Sequence record: MZ726797.1
Direction: 5' to 3' (one strand)
Length of the DNA: 57,811 nt
Source of the DNA: Escherichia phage vB_EcoS_AVIO78A
This document shows positions 5,131 through 42,887 of the stretch, piece by piece (position 1 is the first letter of the stretch; the number at the start of each line of letters is the position of its first letter). A model generated the notes under the pieces. It was given only the letters and a program-made list of their open reading frames with translations, was not told the origin of the DNA and did no database searches. Position numbers and translations under genes: made by a program.

Positions 5131-6894
5131 ATGAATAAGTTTACTGGAAATATTCATAATTACCCGCGTTGGCGGGATGCTTACGCAAACGACGAACGTA
5201 TCTGGCGAAAAGGTCAGCCACGCCCGGATTACAAACAGTGTTACATTGACCGTATTAACCTGTTAAATCGTATGCGCACGGATCGGGCAATTGTCCCGGT
5301 ACTGAAAAAGTATTACGAAACAAACCCGGTAGCGTTTATCCTCGACTGGGCGTTTACTTACGACCCGCGTAACGTCGGTACTGAATATCCACCCAACATG
5401 CCTTTCTGCCTTTTTGAACGTCAAATCGACATGGTTCAGTTTGTTTACGAAGCGCTTGAAGATAAAGAGAAAGGGCTTTGGGAAAAATCGCGAGATTACG
5501 GTGCAACCTGGGTAGCCTGTGGCTTGTCCGTGTGGGCGTGGCTGTATCGTCCTGGTTCTTCAGTTGGCTGGGGATCACGTAAAGAACAGCTTGTTGATAA
5601 ACTGGGCGACCCGGATAGTATTTTTGAAAAGATTCGCCAGATTATTCGCGCATTACCACCAGAATTACGCCCTGTTGGTCTGCGTGAAAAAGACCATCTG
5701 GTTTATATGAAATGTATCAACCCTGAAAACGGTGCGACAATTACTGGTGAAGCTGGTGACAACATTGGTCGTGGTGGTCGTAAATCTGTTTACTTTCTCG
5801 ACGAAGCGGCACACGTAGATCGTCCTGAACTGATCGAAGCGTCGTTGTCAGCTAACACCAACGTCCGTATTGATATCAGTTCGGTTAATGGCGTTGGTAA
5901 CGTTTTTTATCGTAATCGTAAAGCTGGTCTGGAGTGGGAACCGGGCAAAAAATTACCTCGTGGTAAATTGCGTGTTATGGTTCTGGACTGGCGCGATCAC
6001 CCAGCTAAAGATGACGAATGGTATAAGCGAGAAAAACAATCTTTCGCTGAAAAAGGTTTACAGCATATTTTCGCACAGGAAGTTGACCGCGATTATGCCG
6101 CTGCTGTTCAGGGCGTGTTGATTAAAGCTGAATGGGTACGCGCTGCTTTTGATGCTTTCCGTGACACAGAATGGCGCAAAGCTAATGGACTACTTACACC
6201 AACAGGTCAACGTATCGCCGGACAGGACGCAGCAGACGGTGGTGAAGATGCCAGTGCGCTGGTAATTGCTCACGGTGTATTCCTGACACATCTGCAACTT
6301 GACCACAGGGGCGCTGAACTGGCTGCACCAGGAATGTTGACTATGGCTAATATGCTGGGTGTTGATGAATACTGGTACGAAGTTAACGGTGTTGGTACAG
6401 GCGTTAAAGTAGCGGCAAATGACCGAAAAGATACTTTACGCTTCCGTGTGCGTCCGTGGTTACCGAATGGAAAAGTTGTGGATCCGGGCGGTGATATTAT
6501 CGGTGGTACGAAACCTGGCGATAAAGACCGTAAATCAAACAAAGATTATTTCTCAAATTATAAAGCACAGGCATCGTGGGCGTTACGCTTGCGTTGTCAG
6601 CGAATTTATAAATGGTATGTGGAAGGTCAACCACAGGATCCAGACGAAATCATTCTGATTGATCCATCACTGGAAAATGCACAACGGTTAGAAGCTGAGT
6701 TAAGTCAGCCAACGTATACAAGTAACGGTGCCGGGAAGATTGTGATCGACAAAAAACCAAATGGAAGTAAGTCGCCAAACTTTTTCGATGCTGCGGTTAT
6801 TGCACTATCACCAAAACGTACCGAATTCGTTGAAGAACCGTTTACTGGCGGTGTGAATCCTGTTGGTACTCCTGAATATGGTGACATTTTTTAA
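5131..6894 (+). CDS. terminase large subunit
   Basis: 587 aa following TerS-like gene; ATPase-like segment KSRDYGATW and acidic FLDEAAH motif; followed by terminator. Confidence 0.75.
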   Translation: MNKFTGNIHNYPRWRDAYANDERIWRKGQPRPDYKQCYIDRINLLNRMRTDRAIVPVLKKYYETNPVAFILDWAFTYDPRNVGTEYPPNMPFCLFERQIDMVQFVYEALEDKEKGLWEKSRDYGATWVACGLSVWAWLYRPGSSVGWGSRKEQLVDKLGDPDSIFEKIRQIIRALPPELRPVGLREKDHLVYMKCINPENGATITGEAGDNIGRGGRKSVYFLDEAAHVDRPELIEASLSANTNVRIDISSVNGVGNVFYRNRKAGLEWEPGKKLPRGKLRVMVLDWRDHPAKDDEWYKREKQSFAEKGLQHIFAQEVDRDYAAAVQGVLIKAEWVRAAFDAFRDTEWRKANGLLTPTGQRIAGQDAADGGEDASALVIAHGVFLTHLQLDHRGAELAAPGMLTMANMLGVDEYWYEVNGVGTGVKVAANDRKDTLRFRVRPWLPNGKVVDPGGDIIGGTKPGDKDRKSNKDYFSNYKAQASWALRLRCQRIYKWYVEGQPQDPDEIILIDPSLENAQRLEAELSQPTYTSNGAGKIVIDKKPNGSKSPNFFDAAVIALSPKRTEFVEEPFTGGVNPVGTPEYGDIF

Positions 6895-6901
6895 ACAGTG
6901 T

Positions 6902-6931
6902 GGCGGGAATATTCCCGCCCGTTTTCTTTTT
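6902..6931 (+). terminator. intrinsic terminator after terminase gene
   Basis: GGCGGGAATATTCCCGCC hairpin plus T-rich tract. Confidence 0.65.
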
Positions 6932-6968: not shown

Positions 6969-7055
6969 ATCTGTTAGATTAATGTAACACGTCTATACTC
7001 CTGTAGGTAACCAATCGGTTACAGTTAATTAACATTCTCTCACAGGAGTTTCAAC

Positions 7056-7160
7056 ATGTCTGACATGACTTTAGTTCCCACTGGCGGTTTCGGCGGTGAA
7101 GCTGGCGCGGCTGCACTTGGCGGTGGTATCGGTGGTCTTATCGGTTCCTGGTCGCGGTAA
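7056..7160 (+). CDS. short Gly-rich ORF (34 aa) overlapping start of next gene; possible leader or frameshift partner
   Basis: ATG with AGGAG RBS at correct spacing; translation MSDMTLVPTGGFGGEAGAAALGGGIGGLIGSWSR. Confidence 0.35.
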   Translation: MSDMTLVPTGGFGGEAGAAALGGGIGGLIGSWSR

Positions 7161-7713
7161 CTTTGGTGGTCCTGTAGAAGTTCAAGCCTCTGTAGATACC
7201 AACGCTATTCTGCAAGCTATCAATAACGGTACTCTTCAGACCATTCAGGGTCAGAATGGTACTAACCTGACTGTTGAACGCTCAGCAGCTTCTACCTATA
7301 ACGGTCTGACCCAACAGAACACACAAAACCTGCTGGCAAACGTTCAAGGTTTTGCAGGTCTGAACACGCAGATTCAACAGGGTACTAACACTGTGACCAA
7401 TGCGATCTGTGCATCTGAAACTGCGGCACTGACTCGTTCTTTCCAGGCACAGTTAGCGGCTGAGAAGTGTTGCTGCGAAACCAACCTGAATATCGAACGT
7501 CAGGCAGAAGCAACTCGTGCACTGATCCGTGACCAGTTCGCACAGTCTCAGGCTGTTCTGATTTGTGACCTGAAATCTCAGATTCAAACGCGTGACTTCC
7601 AGTTGTCTCAATTGTCACAAACGTCTCAGTTGGCGTGCAAAATTAACCAGGTCGATCAGCTTATTAACTTCAAGCTGCCTACTCCGCAAACTCCACCGAC
7701 TGGCTGCTGCTAA
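7096..7713 (+). CDS. Gln/Asn/Thr-rich Cys-containing protein with signal-peptide-like N-terminus
   Basis: ORF track (GTG start, no internal Met); N-terminus KLARLHLAVVSVVLSV; C-terminal GCC; start ambiguous. Confidence 0.45.
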   Translation: MKLARLHLAVVSVVLSVPGRGNFGGPVEVQASVDTNAILQAINNGTLQTIQGQNGTNLTVERSAASTYNGLTQQNTQNLLANVQGFAGLNTQIQQGTNTVTNAICASETAALTRSFQAQLAAEKCCCETNLNIERQAEATRALIRDQFAQSQAVLICDLKSQIQTRDFQLSQLSQTSQLACKINQVDQLINFKLPTPQTPPTGCC

Positions 7714-7763
7714 TTGGTCAACTAAGCGCCTCTGTACGGGGCGCTTTAACAGGAGATAAGAGT

Positions 7764-8123
7764 ATGCATTACAAACCGTATTACGTTATCAAAAAAGACG
7801 ATGATGACGATGAAGAGGAAGATGTAGAAATTCATCACCATCATCATTATCACCACGGGCATCACCCGGACACGACGGGAGTATTTCATCATGATAGCTA
7901 TGCTGGCGAACATGGTTCAGTTATGGCCCATGTTAAAGCACGTATGGATAACCCTCCTTCGACTTGGGCGTCGTACCACGATAAGCCCGGCGGGATGATG
8001 TCCATTGTTGAAATGGAATATCGCGAACTGATGGAAGAAAAAGCCGAAGGTTCGACGTCTGGTATTAAAAAAGAGCTAACGGATCTGGCTGCAGCCTGTA
8101 TCAACGCGCTTAAAAAGATGTAA
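7764..8123 (+). CDS. Asp/Glu- and His-rich protein (possible metal-binding)
   Basis: ATG with AGGAGA RBS; DDDDDEEEDVEIHHHHHYHHGHH tract. Confidence 0.55.
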   Translation: MHYKPYYVIKKDDDDDEEEDVEIHHHHHYHHGHHPDTTGVFHHDSYAGEHGSVMAHVKARMDNPPSTWASYHDKPGGMMSIVEMEYRELMEEKAEGSTSGIKKELTDLAAACINALKKM

Positions 8124-8139
8124 CTAACAGGAAACCGAC

Positions 8140-8637
8140 ATGCAGAATATTAACGCAGGTATGGGTGTCACCCAGTTTAACGGTATGAAACCGCGAAGCA
8201 CTATTAACATTGGTGGTGTGGAGTGGTCATTACGTCGGGATGCCACTGACTCAACAACAATGTTTCCTCACCCGAAGGTAAGCTGGCTTAACGCTGGTTG
8301 TGAACCGATGGGTGATGGTCGTTTTCATTACTGTTGGATTTTGGGTGTGATTCCCCCGACACCGGGGACAATCGAACGACCTGTTAATGTGATGTATGTT
8401 GGTTTCCATCAATTTAAAATTAATATCGCACCTAATTCAATTAGTCAGGCTGATTTAGACAGGATGCATGTTTATGTCAGCGATACTTCTCATTTTGCTG
8501 GTGAATTTGTCAGTAAGTTTTTAGGTACAGAACCTGTGGAAACTCGTGAAAATATCAGCCCGTGGCCCCCGATGAATGATCCTCGTGAGCAACCAAAAGT
8601 AGCCAAAAATAAGGTAAACGAAGATGACGAAGAATGA
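8140..8637 (+). CDS. hypothetical protein
   Basis: ORF track with RBS; acidic C-terminus. Confidence 0.5.
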   Translation: MQNINAGMGVTQFNGMKPRSTINIGGVEWSLRRDATDSTTMFPHPKVSWLNAGCEPMGDGRFHYCWILGVIPPTPGTIERPVNVMYVGFHQFKINIAPNSISQADLDRMHVYVSDTSHFAGEFVSKFLGTEPVETRENISPWPPMNDPREQPKVAKNKVNEDDEE

Positions 8638-8878
8638 AGGGGTAGACAAAGTAGTCGAAAGTCTGGGGTTACGAGCACACGTAATCGTAGACGAAGGTCA
8701 CAGTCAAGAAGCGATCATGAAGTCGGCATTTAACGATTTTAAAGCGTTGGGTTCTATGAGCGGGATCATGGCAGTGATGACTACCGGGAAATTAAGTCAG
8801 CAACAGTTAGATCTGGCACAACGTATCGCTGTGAAAGTAATTGCCGTTTTAGGTCTTAAAGAGTCAGAAAAAGCGTAA
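8624..8878 (+). CDS. hypothetical protein
   Basis: ORF track; overlaps previous gene end. Confidence 0.5.
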   Translation: MTKNEGVDKVVESLGLRAHVIVDEGHSQEAIMKSAFNDFKALGSMSGIMAVMTTGKLSQQQLDLAQRIAVKVIAVLGLKESEKA

Positions 8879-18214: not shown

Positions 18215-18526
18215 TTATTTAATGATTAATGTTGGTTGTAAGTCTTTTTCATACCAAGTCCAACCAATGCATGTACCATCTTCAGCATCAACATATGGTT
18301 TCAACCAGTCGATAAATTGTTCAATCTCACCACCATAATTTTTAATATCGCTACGACTAAAAATATATTGAGCATCGGTGAAATCAAATTTAGGACAACT
18401 ATTTATTACTTCCGGGTGATGATAAAAACTGCTACAACTACCAATAAAATTCCATCTGGGGAGACTGAAAAACTTATGTTGTGGTAGTTTCTCTGGTTCT
18501 TTTTTCACCACAGAACATATGTGCAA
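18215..18526 (-). CDS. hypothetical protein; no ATG start (TTG only) - possibly C-terminal part of a +1 frameshift product
   Basis: ORF track; overlaps 18474..18599 in the +1 frame. Confidence 0.35.
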   Translation of the reverse strand: MHICSVVKKEPEKLPQHKFFSLPRWNFIGSCSSFYHHPEVINSCPKFDFTDAQYIFSRSDIKNYGGEIEQFIDWLKPYVDAEDGTCIGWTWYEKDLQPTLIIK

Positions 18527-18599
18527 TAACAGCTTTCACATCCACAGGTACATTTTCTTTAATCTGACACTTCAACACTAATTCGGTATACATTCCCAT
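18474..18599 (-). CDS. small ORF (41 aa); possibly N-terminal part of a +1 frameshift product
   Basis: ORF 18474..18674 trimmed to ATG 18599 with GAGGGTG RBS. Confidence 0.35.
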   Translation of the reverse strand: MGMYTELVLKCQIKENVPVDVKAVIAHMFCGEKRTRETTTT

Positions 18600-18645
18600 T
18601 TTCACACCCTCGTTCATAAGCAACCCATTGCTGCTTCCCGTGATA

Positions 18646-18689
18646 AAGATACACCACCGCTTGTAATCCGTCAAGAATTATTTTAAAGA
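18646..18689 (-). promoter_or_regulatory. conserved promoter (-35 TTGACG, -10 TATCTT)
   Basis: motif family member. Confidence 0.6.
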
Positions 18690-31942: not shown

Positions 31943-34463
31943 AGTCATTTATCACACTAACCCTGTTGAACACGCTGATAACGTTGACTTTGGTGAATGG
32001 ATGCTGAAACGCTGGCCCGTGGGTACAGTTCGTCCGCGTGGGTTACTGATTTATAAAAATGATGAGAACATCACCCAAAAGTGGGTTACTGACCCCAGCG
32101 TGTTAACTGATCCTGACGCTATTTATCATATTTATGAACTACCAAAAGGTGGAGTGGTTAGTGCAATAACGAAAGTTATTAGCACAATTTTAAACCCCAT
32201 TTTAAAATTGTTCATGCCGAATACCAGTGCGTCGGCTAATCTTAAAAACTCACGTTCAGCATCGTCTAACAACGCGCTTCAGGGGCGTACTAATGCTTCA
32301 CGACCGGGTGAACGTATTTCTGATATCCGTGGTCGTGTACTGGCATATCCTGACCTGTTAATGGACTACCGAATCTTCATTGACCGAACAGAATATGAAG
32401 TTCAGTTTCTGTGTCTGGGCGCTGGTGAATACGAAGTCGAAGACGTTCGTGACGGTATTACACCTGCTTTAAATATCAGTGGTGAAAAATTAGACTTTTA
32501 TAAAAAAGGTAATGCGCCCGGTTATGGTTCGCCGTATATGAATATCGGTGGTGCAATTGATATCAACACTTTCCCGATCATGGTTACCAAGTCGTCGAAC
32601 GAAGCAGACGGGTCTGAAGTCAAGCCGCCAAACTATGCTGATATTAATAAAGCAAGTTTTAAAATTTACAGCACAGGTGAAATTGATACTACGATTTCTA
32701 GTGATGATAACACTACGATTGATTGGTCTGAACGTGCACCAATCGGTAGTAAAATACGTTTATCGCAATTTTACAGTTTTACACCTAACACGTTACCGTT
32801 AAACACGTATGTACGTAATGACCTGTCCGGTGAATATGATGTTATTTATGCAGGTGAGAATACGTTAATCATTGATACTACTGGTCGTGAAGGTTGGGAT
32901 GCTCTGTCTGAAAGTGGTCAGGCTGCATATACACAGGCTTATTTGCGAAACGATGGTTACTGGGAACTTGAAACCACTGAAGGAAGTGGAAGTATTTTAT
33001 ACAAGTTTTCACCGTCTCTTGACAGTACCACGCCGTATATTGTCGGACCTTATCTGATCGACAGTGCTGATAAGTTGATGATTAACCTTTATGCACAGAA
33101 TGGCGTGTATAAAACGGATGGTGATATTTATCCGTTTACATGTGACTTCCAGGTAATCTTGTCAGACCCGAACGGTGTGAAAGCAAATGTTACACACTCT
33201 ATGTCTGTCCGCGGTCGTTATACAGAAGCAGTAGGTAATTCATTAATCGTGGACAACCCTTTTGATGGTCCTGTTAACGTGTCTGTAAGACGACTATCAA
33301 ATACAGACAAAGATTTCGAAGGGTCTGTTGTTGACAACATCAAGTGGCGCGATTTATACGCTATTACAAATGTTTCTCCGCGTTCCTATGGTGATGTGAC
33401 ATTGATCCATACAGTGACGAAAGCAACAAACGCTGCACTGAAACAAAAAGAACGTAAATTAAACATGATTGCAACCCGTGTGTACAACGGTGTTGCAAGT
33501 AGTAATTTTGCAGACGTTGTAATGTCAATGCACACAGATCCTTTATTTGGTCGTCGAACATTAGATACCATTGATCGCGATGCTTTATATGCTGTTCAGG
33601 AACAACTTCTTGAATATTTTGGTGACCATCGAGCAATTGAAGTTGGCTATACGTTTGATAATAACAGTACGACGTACGAAGAAGGATTGGACACTATCTG
33701 TAACACGGTAAATGTTAAACCGTATCAGATCGGTAGTGTATTGTATTTTTGGCCTGAATTACCGCAAGACCAGTCCGCAATGCAGTTTGGTCATGCGTTT
33801 AAGATTCCTGACAGTGATAAACGCACACGTTCTTTCGCACCGCCTAAAGAATACACTGGTGTTCAGGTTAAATACTTCGACCGCGATGAAAAATCATATT
33901 TGTATGTAACCAAAGGTGAAGAAACAAACCTTAATAAGATAGATCTTGTTGCGTGTCAGTCGCGATATCTTGCAAACATTCGCGCTAATCGTGAGATGAA
34001 TAAGTTACGTTATCAACGTATCACCCATGAGTGTACAGCGCTTAGTATCGGGTTACAGGCTACCCCAGGTATGCGTGTGGATATGATTGATAATACCCGT
34101 ATGAAACAGCACGAAGGCGTTGTAGTTGATGTTGACGGTTTAACGCTTATTCTTAGTGATCCTGTTACGTTCACCACGGGTAATACATACAGTATAACGT
34201 TAACCCACCGACTGGGAACACTTGAAAATATTCCTGTAACTGCCGGGGATGATGAATTTTCAGTGGTAATGGCTTATCAACCGTCTGAAGAAATTTACAC
34301 GGGGTGGTTACGTGACCGTACAGCCTATATAATCCGTGCGGATAACGAACGTAGCAAATTAGCGATGCTTGTTCAGAGTATGGAACCGTCAGGAAGGGAT
34401 AACAATTATCAGGTAGGTTTAACGTGCATCAATTACGATGCACGTTATTATCAGGATGATTAA
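31935..34463 (+). CDS. tail tip / host specificity protein (J-like)
   Basis: 842 aa at end of tail block. Confidence 0.55.
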   Translation: MSKVIYHTNPVEHADNVDFGEWMLKRWPVGTVRPRGLLIYKNDENITQKWVTDPSVLTDPDAIYHIYELPKGGVVSAITKVISTILNPILKLFMPNTSASANLKNSRSASSNNALQGRTNASRPGERISDIRGRVLAYPDLLMDYRIFIDRTEYEVQFLCLGAGEYEVEDVRDGITPALNISGEKLDFYKKGNAPGYGSPYMNIGGAIDINTFPIMVTKSSNEADGSEVKPPNYADINKASFKIYSTGEIDTTISSDDNTTIDWSERAPIGSKIRLSQFYSFTPNTLPLNTYVRNDLSGEYDVIYAGENTLIIDTTGREGWDALSESGQAAYTQAYLRNDGYWELETTEGSGSILYKFSPSLDSTTPYIVGPYLIDSADKLMINLYAQNGVYKTDGDIYPFTCDFQVILSDPNGVKANVTHSMSVRGRYTEAVGNSLIVDNPFDGPVNVSVRRLSNTDKDFEGSVVDNIKWRDLYAITNVSPRSYGDVTLIHTVTKATNAALKQKERKLNMIATRVYNGVASSNFADVVMSMHTDPLFGRRTLDTIDRDALYAVQEQLLEYFGDHRAIEVGYTFDNNSTTYEEGLDTICNTVNVKPYQIGSVLYFWPELPQDQSAMQFGHAFKIPDSDKRTRSFAPPKEYTGVQVKYFDRDEKSYLYVTKGEETNLNKIDLVACQSRYLANIRANREMNKLRYQRITHECTALSIGLQATPGMRVDMIDNTRMKQHEGVVVDVDGLTLILSDPVTFTTGNTYSITLTHRLGTLENIPVTAGDDEFSVVMAYQPSEEIYTGWLRDRTAYIIRADNERSKLAMLVQSMEPSGRDNNYQVGLTCINYDARYYQDD

Positions 34464-41855: not shown

Positions 41856-42887
41856 TCAGTAACCGTTACCGTTGAGAAAATTCGGGGCCGGGGTGGTCAT
41901 TACCATATAACCGTTAGCGATCAGTTGTTCATCGTTCCAACCTTGCGCAATAAACTGTTCGTAAGTTGCACCACCTGCTTTTTCAGTCATTACTTTTACA
42001 GGTGCTGCCGCTGGTGTAGGCGTTGCTACAGGTGCTGCCGCTGGTGTAGGCGTTGCTACAGGTGCTGCCGCTGGTGTAGGCGTTGCTACAGGTGCTGCCG
42101 CTGGTGTAGGCGCTGCTACAGGTGCTGCCGCTGGTGTAGGCGTTGCTACAGGTGCTGCCGCTGGTGTAGGCGTTGCTACAGGTGCTGCCGCTGGTGTAGG
42201 CGTTGCTACAGGTGCTGCCGCTGGTGTAGGCGCTGCTACAGGTGCTGCCGCTGGTGTAGGCGCTGCTACAGGTGCTGCCGCTGGTGTTACGCCGATCGGA
42301 CGTGCACCTTCAGGCATTGCAGGAGCAGCACCGAACACAGATGCAGGAGCCGGACCAGAAATGATTTCTTCACCCGCATAAAGCAATTGCGCCATTTCCA
42401 TGTTGATATATACGCCAGCCTGATTACCTGTACGACCGTTTGCAACAGATGATCCGCTGATACGGTAGTAATAACCTTTTTTCGCCAGATTTTTATCAAT
42501 AACTGGCTGGTACGCTGCGTTATAAACCGGACACGCATCAATAGCCACGTTGCGTGAGAAACCAATTACCCAGTGACCAGCATAACCAGTTTTACTCGCA
42601 TGTTTCGGATCGTCACCGTTAATAATTTTCCATGCGAAAGTGGGTTGTTGTGGTTCGCCGTTCACATAGTGTGAGTTAGCCACTCGCATAATCGCCTGGA
42701 ATACCGCACCCAGTTCACCTTGTTCTTCCCACCAGTTCGCCGCTGTTTTAGGAAACGCCAGGCCAACCCACCAGTTGTGTTTTTCAGGTGCTAACGGTTT
42801 ATTTTCGTGGTCATGAGTGTTGATATCGAAAAAAGAACCGCCAACCAGACGACCAACCGGAGTTACAAAAGATTCTTTCTGTGCCAT
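41856..42887 (-). CDS. ssDNA-binding protein-like (DUF2815-like N-domain) with Pro/Ala repeat linker and conserved C-terminal motif
   Basis: VGRL...FPK pattern; PAAAPVA[TA]PT x ~9.5; C-terminal TYEQFIAQGWNDEQL. Confidence 0.5.
   Translation of the reverse strand: MAQKESFVTPVGRLVGGSFFDINTHDHENKPLAPEKHNWWVGLAFPKTAANWWEEQGELGAVFQAIMRVANSHYVNGEPQQPTFAWKIINGDDPKHASKTGYAGHWVIGFSRNVAIDACPVYNAAYQPVIDKNLAKKGYYYRISGSSVANGRTGNQAGVYINMEMAQLLYAGEEIISGPAPASVFGAAPAMPEGARPIGVTPAAAPVAAPTPAAAPVAAPTPAAAPVATPTPAAAPVATPTPAAAPVATPTPAAAPVAAPTPAAAPVATPTPAAAPVATPTPAAAPVATPTPAAAPVKVMTEKAGGATYEQFIAQGWNDEQLIANGYMVMTTPAPNFLNGNGY
41996..42288. repeat. tandem 30-bp repeat (~9.5 copies) encoding the Pro/Ala linker
   Basis: GGTGCTGCCGCTGGTGTAGGCG[T/C]TGCTACA repeated contiguously. 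Confidence 0.9.

Follow-up and report, generated by a model that had tools for sequence, protein, structure and literature searches.

The window analyzed here is the 57,811-nt record of Escherichia phage vB_EcoS_AVIO78A (MZ726797.1), a Sashavirus/9NA-like siphophage that is about 96% identical to Sashavirus BDX09P1, to 536P12 and to E. coli phage KarinMuster (Bas82). At 5131-6894 lies the large terminase gene; after it comes a locus in which a short frame with a strong start is overlapped by a much longer one, shifted by +1. The features of this locus and of its surroundings are given in Table 1.

The main elements of the start region read as in the original prediction. The ATG at 7056 is preceded by AGGAG and a 7-nt spacer (TTTCAAC), its frame has 34 codons (MSDMTLVPTGGFGGEAGAAALGGGIGGLIGSWSR) and ends on CGG followed by TAA at 7158-7160, and the +1 frame is open over 7075-7713 without any ATG. 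The GTG at 7096, thought to be the only place where the long frame could begin, is indeed the first possible start of that frame and has a weak GGCGG 8 nt upstream, but it is not the sole start available. TTG 7117, GTG 7123 and GTG 7132 are further in-frame starts, and the next one downstream of 7132 is GTG 7393. The duplex with the anti-Shine-Dalgarno sequence is computed at -5.5 kcal/mol for GTG 7096, against -6.9 for ATG 7056, and the best SD-like pairing among the starts of the +1 frame is that of GTG 7132 (-6.4).

Table 1. Position of the disrupted gene, its regulatory elements and its neighbors in the window.
Feature	Coordinates	Strand	Remarks
Intrinsic-terminator-like hairpin with T-run	6902..6928	+	After the terminase gene; separates it from the broken gene
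Palindrome/hairpin GTAACC-AATC-GGTTAC	7007..7022	+	5' leader, 34 nt before the ATG, just past a TATACT box
Shine-Dalgarno AGGAG	7044..7048	+	Conserved ribosome-binding site of the intact gene
5' gene remnant, 34-codon mechanical ORF1	7056..7160	+	Codons 1-32 native
Zone open in both frames, 83 nt	7075..7157	+	Contains NTG 7096, 7117, 7123 and 7132 of the +1 frame
Deletion junction, TGGT (4-nt microhomology left over)	7149..7152	+	DNA alignment, in-silico repair
3' gene remnant, +1 frame, native residues G45-C231	7150..7713	+	Stop 7711-7713
GC-rich hairpin AAGCGCC-N9-GGCGCTT	7724..7746	+	Directly 3' of the stop; homologous Sasha site annotated as terminator
119-aa Asp/Glu- and His-rich protein, phrog_9157	7764-8123		Downstream cassette
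165-aa protein, phrog_8329	8140-8637		Downstream cassette
84-aa protein, phrog_7239	8624-8878		Downstream cassette

Relatives, setting and product of the gene

Comparison with homologous phages, a check put forward together with the original prediction, was decisive for the frame question. PJ16, Bas82, Sasha, Sergei, 536P12 and BDX09P1 each have a single ORF of 225-233 codons that begins at the equivalent ATG. A search with the 205-aa ORF as query against 5.8 billion proteins returned 182 homologues, the best of which are 225-235 aa long and cover query residues ~19-205 (91% of the ORF) with an identity of up to 100%. Among the best 120 of the 182, a conserved MSDMTL-type N-terminus is found in 119. 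Likewise, 29 of the 31 loci that bear the family in IMG/VR are intact. The gene belongs to phrog_9288, a family of unknown function whose proteins normally have 225-235 aa. Sasha gp07 matches the profile of this family over positions 1-233 of 234 (E 1.8e-131), and residues 19-205 of the second ORF of the window match it over positions 46-233 of 234 (E 5.8e-95). This ORF is a member by profile, and the window holds no uninterrupted ORF that would run from the conserved MSDMTL start to a C-terminus of the GCC type. The window copy is thus a disrupted member of phrog_9288, and since both pieces match one conserved family, the feature is no chance pattern of ORFs.

The conservation extends to the very beginning of the protein. 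Residues M1, M4, L6, P8, G11, G13, G17, A19, G22, G26 (invariant), G30, S31, G34, G36 and G39 are conserved family-wide, and the N-terminal elements follow one another in the order DMTLxP, G22-x3-G26-x3-G30-x3-G34 and GNG[FW]GG. Since the N-terminus is conserved across the family, the ATG at 7056 is the true start. The CACAGGAG-N7-ATG arrangement is shared unchanged by PJ16, Bas82, Sasha and the metagenome orthologues.

The setting of the gene is also shared. The orthologues Sasha gp07 (APU92763.1), Bas82_0002 (XPK41718.1) and PJ16_015 (WKV24518.1) are found at the same position, behind the large terminase gene, and share with the window copy the SD, the ATG and the downstream three-gene cassette; by contrast, the window copy falls into ORFs of 34 and 205 codons and is missing 38 nt. 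Together with these three small genes, phrog_9288 forms a four-gene cassette that moves between Sashavirus, Seuratvirus and Hanrivervirus. In Sashavirus the large terminase gene precedes it, in Seuratvirus and Hanrivervirus the lateral tail-fibre genes do, and the T5-like Epseptimavirus have a homologue without the cassette, likewise after the tail-fibre genes. The palindrome of the leader recurs ~25-45 nt upstream of the start codons of the family in several phage genera, past a TATACT or TATGCT box (for example in L014 at 2340-2355, and in L007, L025, L032, L036, L037, L045 and other loci). Its arms vary in a compensatory way (GTAAC/GTTAC, GTAGC/GCTAC, GTGGC/GCCAC, GCGAAC/GTTCGC); a stem-loop at the 5' end of the mRNA and a dimeric operator are both conceivable. 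The gene probably has a leader of its own for expression, with a terminator-like hairpin on either side. Elsewhere in the window, at 41997-42287, a self-offset blastn ladder against Bas82 at 30-nt steps indicates a tandem array of 30-nt repeats in the orthologue of the Bas82_0067 gene for an ssDNA-annealing protein.

In the intact protein, the tail is PTPxTPPTGCC, and the predicted helix carries an invariant CCC that is part of CCCETN in almost every member. AlphaFold models it, at low confidence (mean pLDDT 61), as disordered over residues 1-60, followed by a single helix of ~155 residues (61-217) and the Pro/Cys tail. Hydropathy on the Kyte-Doolittle scale (19 residues) peaks at 1.14 in this clade; only distant homologues reach 1.5-1.7, at the aligned position. 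In the latter (phrog_16490; L050 and L053), a clearly hydrophobic helix stands where the enterobacterial members have the glycine zipper, and after it come, as in those members, a GGWGGNGFGNRG-type linker and the CCCETN motif. The model and these comparisons suggest that in the intact product a flexible Gly linker would connect a membrane anchor to a long helical rod with cysteines. Our best guess is that it is an accessory or "moron"-type protein acting on the envelope.

This predicted architecture resembles that of Rz-type i-spanins and of other type II membrane proteins with periplasmic coiled coils, in that the intact protein, too, would be anchored at its N-terminus and have a long domain of helix, cysteines that are conserved and a C-terminus rich in Pro. 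However, we found no sequence or profile similarity between Rz-type i-spanins and the phrog_9288 protein, whose gene lies outside the lysis cassette and has no embedded or adjacent lipoprotein partner. The annotated holin, endolysin, Rz-like spanin and o-spanin of Bas82 are at 32645-34065, and by synteny this phage, too, has separate genes for the Rz-like spanin and the o-spanin. Searches for other relatives gave no match at or near the curated cut-offs in Pfam and NCBIfam, no significant match in a profile search of the PDB or with Foldseek against BFVD, and only families of "unknown function" in PHROGs. The genomic context of the distant phrog_16490 homologues was uninformative on function, and a full-text literature search returned nothing on the phrog_9288 family. 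Some records name its proteins "lateral tail fiber chaperone" (KurtStettler, PJ16) or "sugar-binding protein", which are misnomers. The first of these names fits the Peptidase_S74-type C-terminus of a tail fibre that is fused upstream in KurtStettler; this fusion is likely the source of the name and is no evidence on the phrog_9288 protein itself. The DMTLV motif and the Gly/Trp-rich region may recall the TonB boxes and unstructured translocation domains of colicins, a kinship that we do not claim.

A 38-nt deletion in the Gly/Trp tract

The DNA alignment shows that the window gene equals the metagenomic orthologue ERZ13616926 minus exactly 38 nt (TCGGTAACGGTTGGGGTGGCGGTGGTGGCTGGGGTGGT). The lost nucleotides are TCGGTAACGGYTGGGGTGGCGGTGGTGGCTGGGGTGGT, which encode FGNGWGGGGGWGG. 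Because 38 is not a multiple of 3 (38 mod 3 = 2), the reading frame breaks. When the 38 nt are put back in silico, the result is an ORF of 696 nt coding for 231 aa that are 100% identical to protein P0001 and 93-100% identical to the phrog_9288 relatives; at the DNA level, the repaired gene and the ERZ13616926 orthologue have 6 differences over the 696 nt, all of them synonymous.

The two mechanical ORFs are readily explained by this loss. ORF1 is identical to residues 1-32 of P0001 and holds the conserved MSDMTLVP motif and the glycine zipper G22-x3-G26-x3-G30. Its codons 33-34 (S, R) and the TAA are GGT CGC GGT AAC in the wrong frame: as the gene is repaired by re-inserting the 38 nt, the stop is an out-of-frame GGT-AAC, and the sequence flanking it is identical to that of the intact genes, where it is read as GGT CGC GGT AAC. 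The 205-codon ORF at 7096-7713 begins with 18 codons that are Gly codons read out of frame (MKLARLHLAVVSVVLSVP). The two-frame start is therefore one conserved, uncharacterised phage gene, split by a 38-nt deletion that is private to this genome. The gene has no other decay, which indicates that the lesion is recent.

Both copies of TGGT at the ends of the deletion sit in imperfect repeats, TGGTTCGGTAAC and TGGTCGCGGTAAC, within a tract of Gly and Trp codons. Deletions between short direct repeats through replication slippage are of the classical lacI type. Likewise, the endpoints here lie in 4-nt microhomology within imperfect repeats of 12-13 nt, and the window retains one copy of the repeat. 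There is nothing unusual in this, and a loss flanked by short repeats fits the classical signature of replication slippage or microhomology-mediated deletion. Either kind of event between the two TGGT copies may have produced the deletion.

Ribosomes that start at the strong, conserved SD and ATG would make a stub of 34 residues, namely 32 native ones, Ser-Arg and the stop. The remaining 187 native codons, in the +1 frame, would at best be weakly translated from poor NTG starts located inside the translated stub, and any C-terminal product would be without the conserved anchor. Judging from these features, the allele is probably null or severely hypomorphic. The gene is accessory and dispensable, which would be why the phage tolerates such an allele.

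Damage to the gene in other phages and competing explanations

Remnants and broken copies of the gene occur in other phages. The product gp12 of 9NA (AIB07015.1, 62 aa; locus L015, KJ802832.1, 5959-6524) is what is left of the same gene, broken in the same tract as in the window: the first 45 residues are kept and are followed by unrelated sequence. The loss amounts to ~1.2 kb in 9NA versus 38 nt in the window. It starts from the 3' edge of the Gly/Trp tract. Lost with the remainder of the phrog_9288 gene were the His-rich gene and, of the gene for the 165-aa protein, the 5' third; the C-terminal 116 residues of this protein are now gp13. In Skure the gene has an in-frame TAG, in phage 36 a 1-nt deletion in the Gly tract and in SRR25721713 an indel of 1-2 nt in that tract, and it is degraded in Rokbiter and 2019SD1. 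Two Seuratvirus records have in-frame deletion fusions with sequences of the upstream tail-fibre gene. In KurtStettler (L008, MZ501091.1, 533-2065) a Peptidase_S74-type tail-fibre C-terminus is joined at GGE|AGAA, and in SHIN8 (L016, PP627280.1, 3114-3722) the last 72 residues follow a tail-fibre N-terminus, the lateral tail fibre being deleted.

A profile search of 1.84 billion representatives gives a larger view of such cases. It returned about two dozen short ORFs with the N-terminus only, about ten of which break in or just past GNG[FW]. Beyond the single cases named in this section, about eight clusters of N-terminal fragments break there, P0160, P0175, P0177, P0181, P0184 and P0216 among them. 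Three broken cases were read at the DNA level (L074, L075 and L076/L077): two are G4-to-G3 changes in TGGGGT and the third is a +1 change in a T-run. The same G4-to-G3 frameshift is present in L076 (ERZ28635815) and L077 (ERZ27318465), with the gene at 1201-1898, in backgrounds that are 94% identical and come from different samples. This broken allele therefore persists in natural phage populations. Overall, the tract stands out as an indel hot spot: breaks in GNG[FW]GG are recurrent, as they are found in the window, L014, L040, L074, L075, L076/L077 and further truncated clusters. They are nevertheless a minority, with 1 of 120 protein clusters and 2 of 31 IMG/VR loci affected. The tract also varies in frame (P0009, P0005 and 536P12 lack 3, 4 and 6 residues, respectively), and the length of the linker varies widely across the family.

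The original prediction had considered three origins for the two frames: a recoding site, a leader peptide and an indel. Programmed +1 (or -2) frameshifting would join the frames of 7056 and 7096 into a functional protein with a linker 13 residues shorter. The 83-nt overlap is compatible with this, as is the CGG-TAA-C end of ORF1, which places a rare codon (CGG is a rare arginine codon in E. coli) next to a stop, a pairing that can favour +1 slippage. Linkers shortened in frame also occur naturally, so that the loss of some linker residues could be tolerated. But the two-frame arrangement is not conserved, every close relative having a single ORF, and since the sequence at the site is identical to that of intact genes, it is not selected for recoding. 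Furthermore, a shift from CGG to GGU makes tRNA re-pairing impossible, an SD-like stimulator upstream, as in prfB, is absent, and the only plausible slip site, CCC-A at 7077, would put out-of-frame residues in place of the conserved glycine zipper. Reading 7075-7157 for an X_XXY_YYZ heptamer, a CUU_UGA_C-like motif with an upstream SD, or a homopolymer run gave none, and among the +1, -2 and transcriptional-slippage motifs for which the overlap was checked, none would restore the native protein. The locus resembles the +1 frameshift of prfB and the -1 frameshift of lambda G/GT-type tail chaperones in its overlapping frames and in having a strong start on the first frame only; unlike them, it has no conserved slippery site or two-frame layout. 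The tail-chaperone frameshift of this phage group is elsewhere, in Bas82_0045 and 0046. We thus regard frameshifting as highly improbable. Had a translated leader peptide of 34 codons evolved to be coupled to a GTG-initiated gene of 205 codons, or to regulate it, this would account for a strong SD and ATG upstream of a long ORF devoid of ATG, and for the NTG codons with weak SD-like sequences at 7096 and 7132. With a Kyte-Doolittle value of 2.03 over 15 residues, the out-of-frame N-terminus MKLARLHLAVVSVVLSV is hydrophobic and looks like a signal anchor. Yet this "leader" is the conserved N-terminus of the full-length protein, and neither the short ORF nor the GTG start is conserved as a separate unit in the homologues, which are single ORFs. 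Profile and BLAST matches to the 205-codon ORF begin at residue 19, its first 18 codons having no counterpart in the family. An N-terminus of the MKLARLHL type is absent among the homologues returned from the 5.8 billion proteins, and the corresponding out-of-frame ORF, a by-product of GGY codons, is also present inside the intact genes of 536P12 and BDX09P1. There is hardly any probability left for a leader peptide.

The third option, a sequencing indel in the Gly tract, was right about the place and about the kind of change, but the change is a 38-nt deletion rather than an error of 1-2 nt, and a real mutation is likelier than a base-calling error. If the deletion is real, it could be part of a contingency system, in which indels in a hypermutable Gly/Trp tract switch an accessory envelope protein on and off and the window carries the OFF variant. 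This would agree with the many independent frame breaks in one tract of ~60 nt in several phage genera, with the frequent in-frame length variants, with the persistence of one broken allele in two natural backgrounds, and with the deletions of 9NA and of the window, which share an endpoint within a few nt, at TGGGGTGGT|C. On the other hand, the tract has no long perfect repeat like those of phase-variation loci: its runs are short (G4, T4), and the 18-nt unit, present in two copies, is imperfectly repeated, which is a long way from the classical phase-variable tract. Only about 3-7% of alleles are broken, a 38-nt deletion is not readily reversible, low-coverage metagenome contigs may add errors (L075 has 1.5x coverage), and lesions are also found outside the tract (Skure TAG, SHIN8, rokbiter), as fits the simple loss of a dispensable gene. 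We find such a contingency tract very unlikely. It is similarly doubtful, though worth stating, that the G4 runs at TGG-GGT and the 18-nt near-repeats make the tract a selected, hypermutable toggle of a membrane-anchored accessory protein that is OFF in the window, and equally doubtful that such a toggle spans the unrelated siphophage lineages Sashavirus, Queuovirinae, Drexlerviridae and T5-like phages. In a variant of the idea, MKLARLHLAVVSVVLSV could be a surrogate signal anchor, with the GTG-initiated product still reaching the envelope. Our results favour ordinary mutational decay over adaptive breakage. Finally, the phage may have an intact 696-nt gene from which consensus calling, polishing or the assembly itself dropped the 38 nt. 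This sequence alone has the lesion, the remainder of the gene is so perfectly preserved that the repaired protein is identical to P0001, the tract is of low complexity with a near-tandem 18-nt unit (GGCTGGGGTGG), and the same assembly has a private homopolymer +1 frameshift near 18500 that is typical of sequencing error. Against this, a 38-nt loss is not a typical base-calling error and is far above the usual indel errors of the platforms. The longest exact repeats flanking the deletion, TGGT and CGGTAAC (4-7 nt), are too short for k-mer-graph collapse, as the k-mers of assemblers are normally far longer. Real, inherited lesions are known in the same tract, such as the G4-to-G3 allele in two samples with different backgrounds and the 9NA deletion, which is in the genome of a long-kept laboratory phage, and breaks are found in only 2 of the ~80 genes comparable with Bas82. 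An artefact is therefore unlikely, even if it keeps a real share of the probability, and we put a genuine, very recent mutation in a dispensable accessory gene at roughly 65%.

Two observations bear on how far the assembly can be trusted. The survey of frame breaks was a protein-level check against Bas82, a blastn scan being too noisy at 96% identity, and with 2 of ~80 genes broken the assembly is not generally poor. The other break, at 18215-18674 (- strand), is in an A-run near 18500 that has six A (GTGAAAAAAGAACC, coding strand) against five in Bas82; the matches in PDP46 and 536P12 also have one base less than the window and are intact. The additional base splits the 127-aa orthologue of Bas82_0031/PDP46_0039 into ORFs of 66 and 103 aa, and is private to this genome. 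It looks like a sequencing error, and this change from A5 to A6 lowers the trust in the indel accuracy of the assembly and raises the odds of an artefact. The 38-nt deletion itself and its exact limits are established, and none of the public collections searched contains it: the junction pattern GGTTCCTGGTCGYGGTAAYTT had 0 matches in viral_contigs and 3 in metagenome_contigs, all by chance in unrelated sequence.

Consequences for annotation and for the phrog_9288 family

The locus is a case of ordinary gene disruption, unless the break is an assembly error. Positions 7056-7713 should be annotated as a single disrupted gene or pseudogene, and not as a leader peptide followed by a gene with a GTG start, nor as a recoding site. 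The break at 7056-7713 and the A-run at 18500 are the two places to be flagged for the indel accuracy of this assembly.

The case adds to the evidence that phrog_9288 is a dispensable accessory gene, of which loss, or breakage within the low-complexity tract, is a repeated event. Should the recurrent breakage be adaptive, virulent phages would have here one of the few examples of a contingency-type switch. The broken copies are also useful for assigning a function to phrog_9288, because they provide natural knock-outs: 9NA, Skure, SHIN8, phage 36 and the phage studied here.
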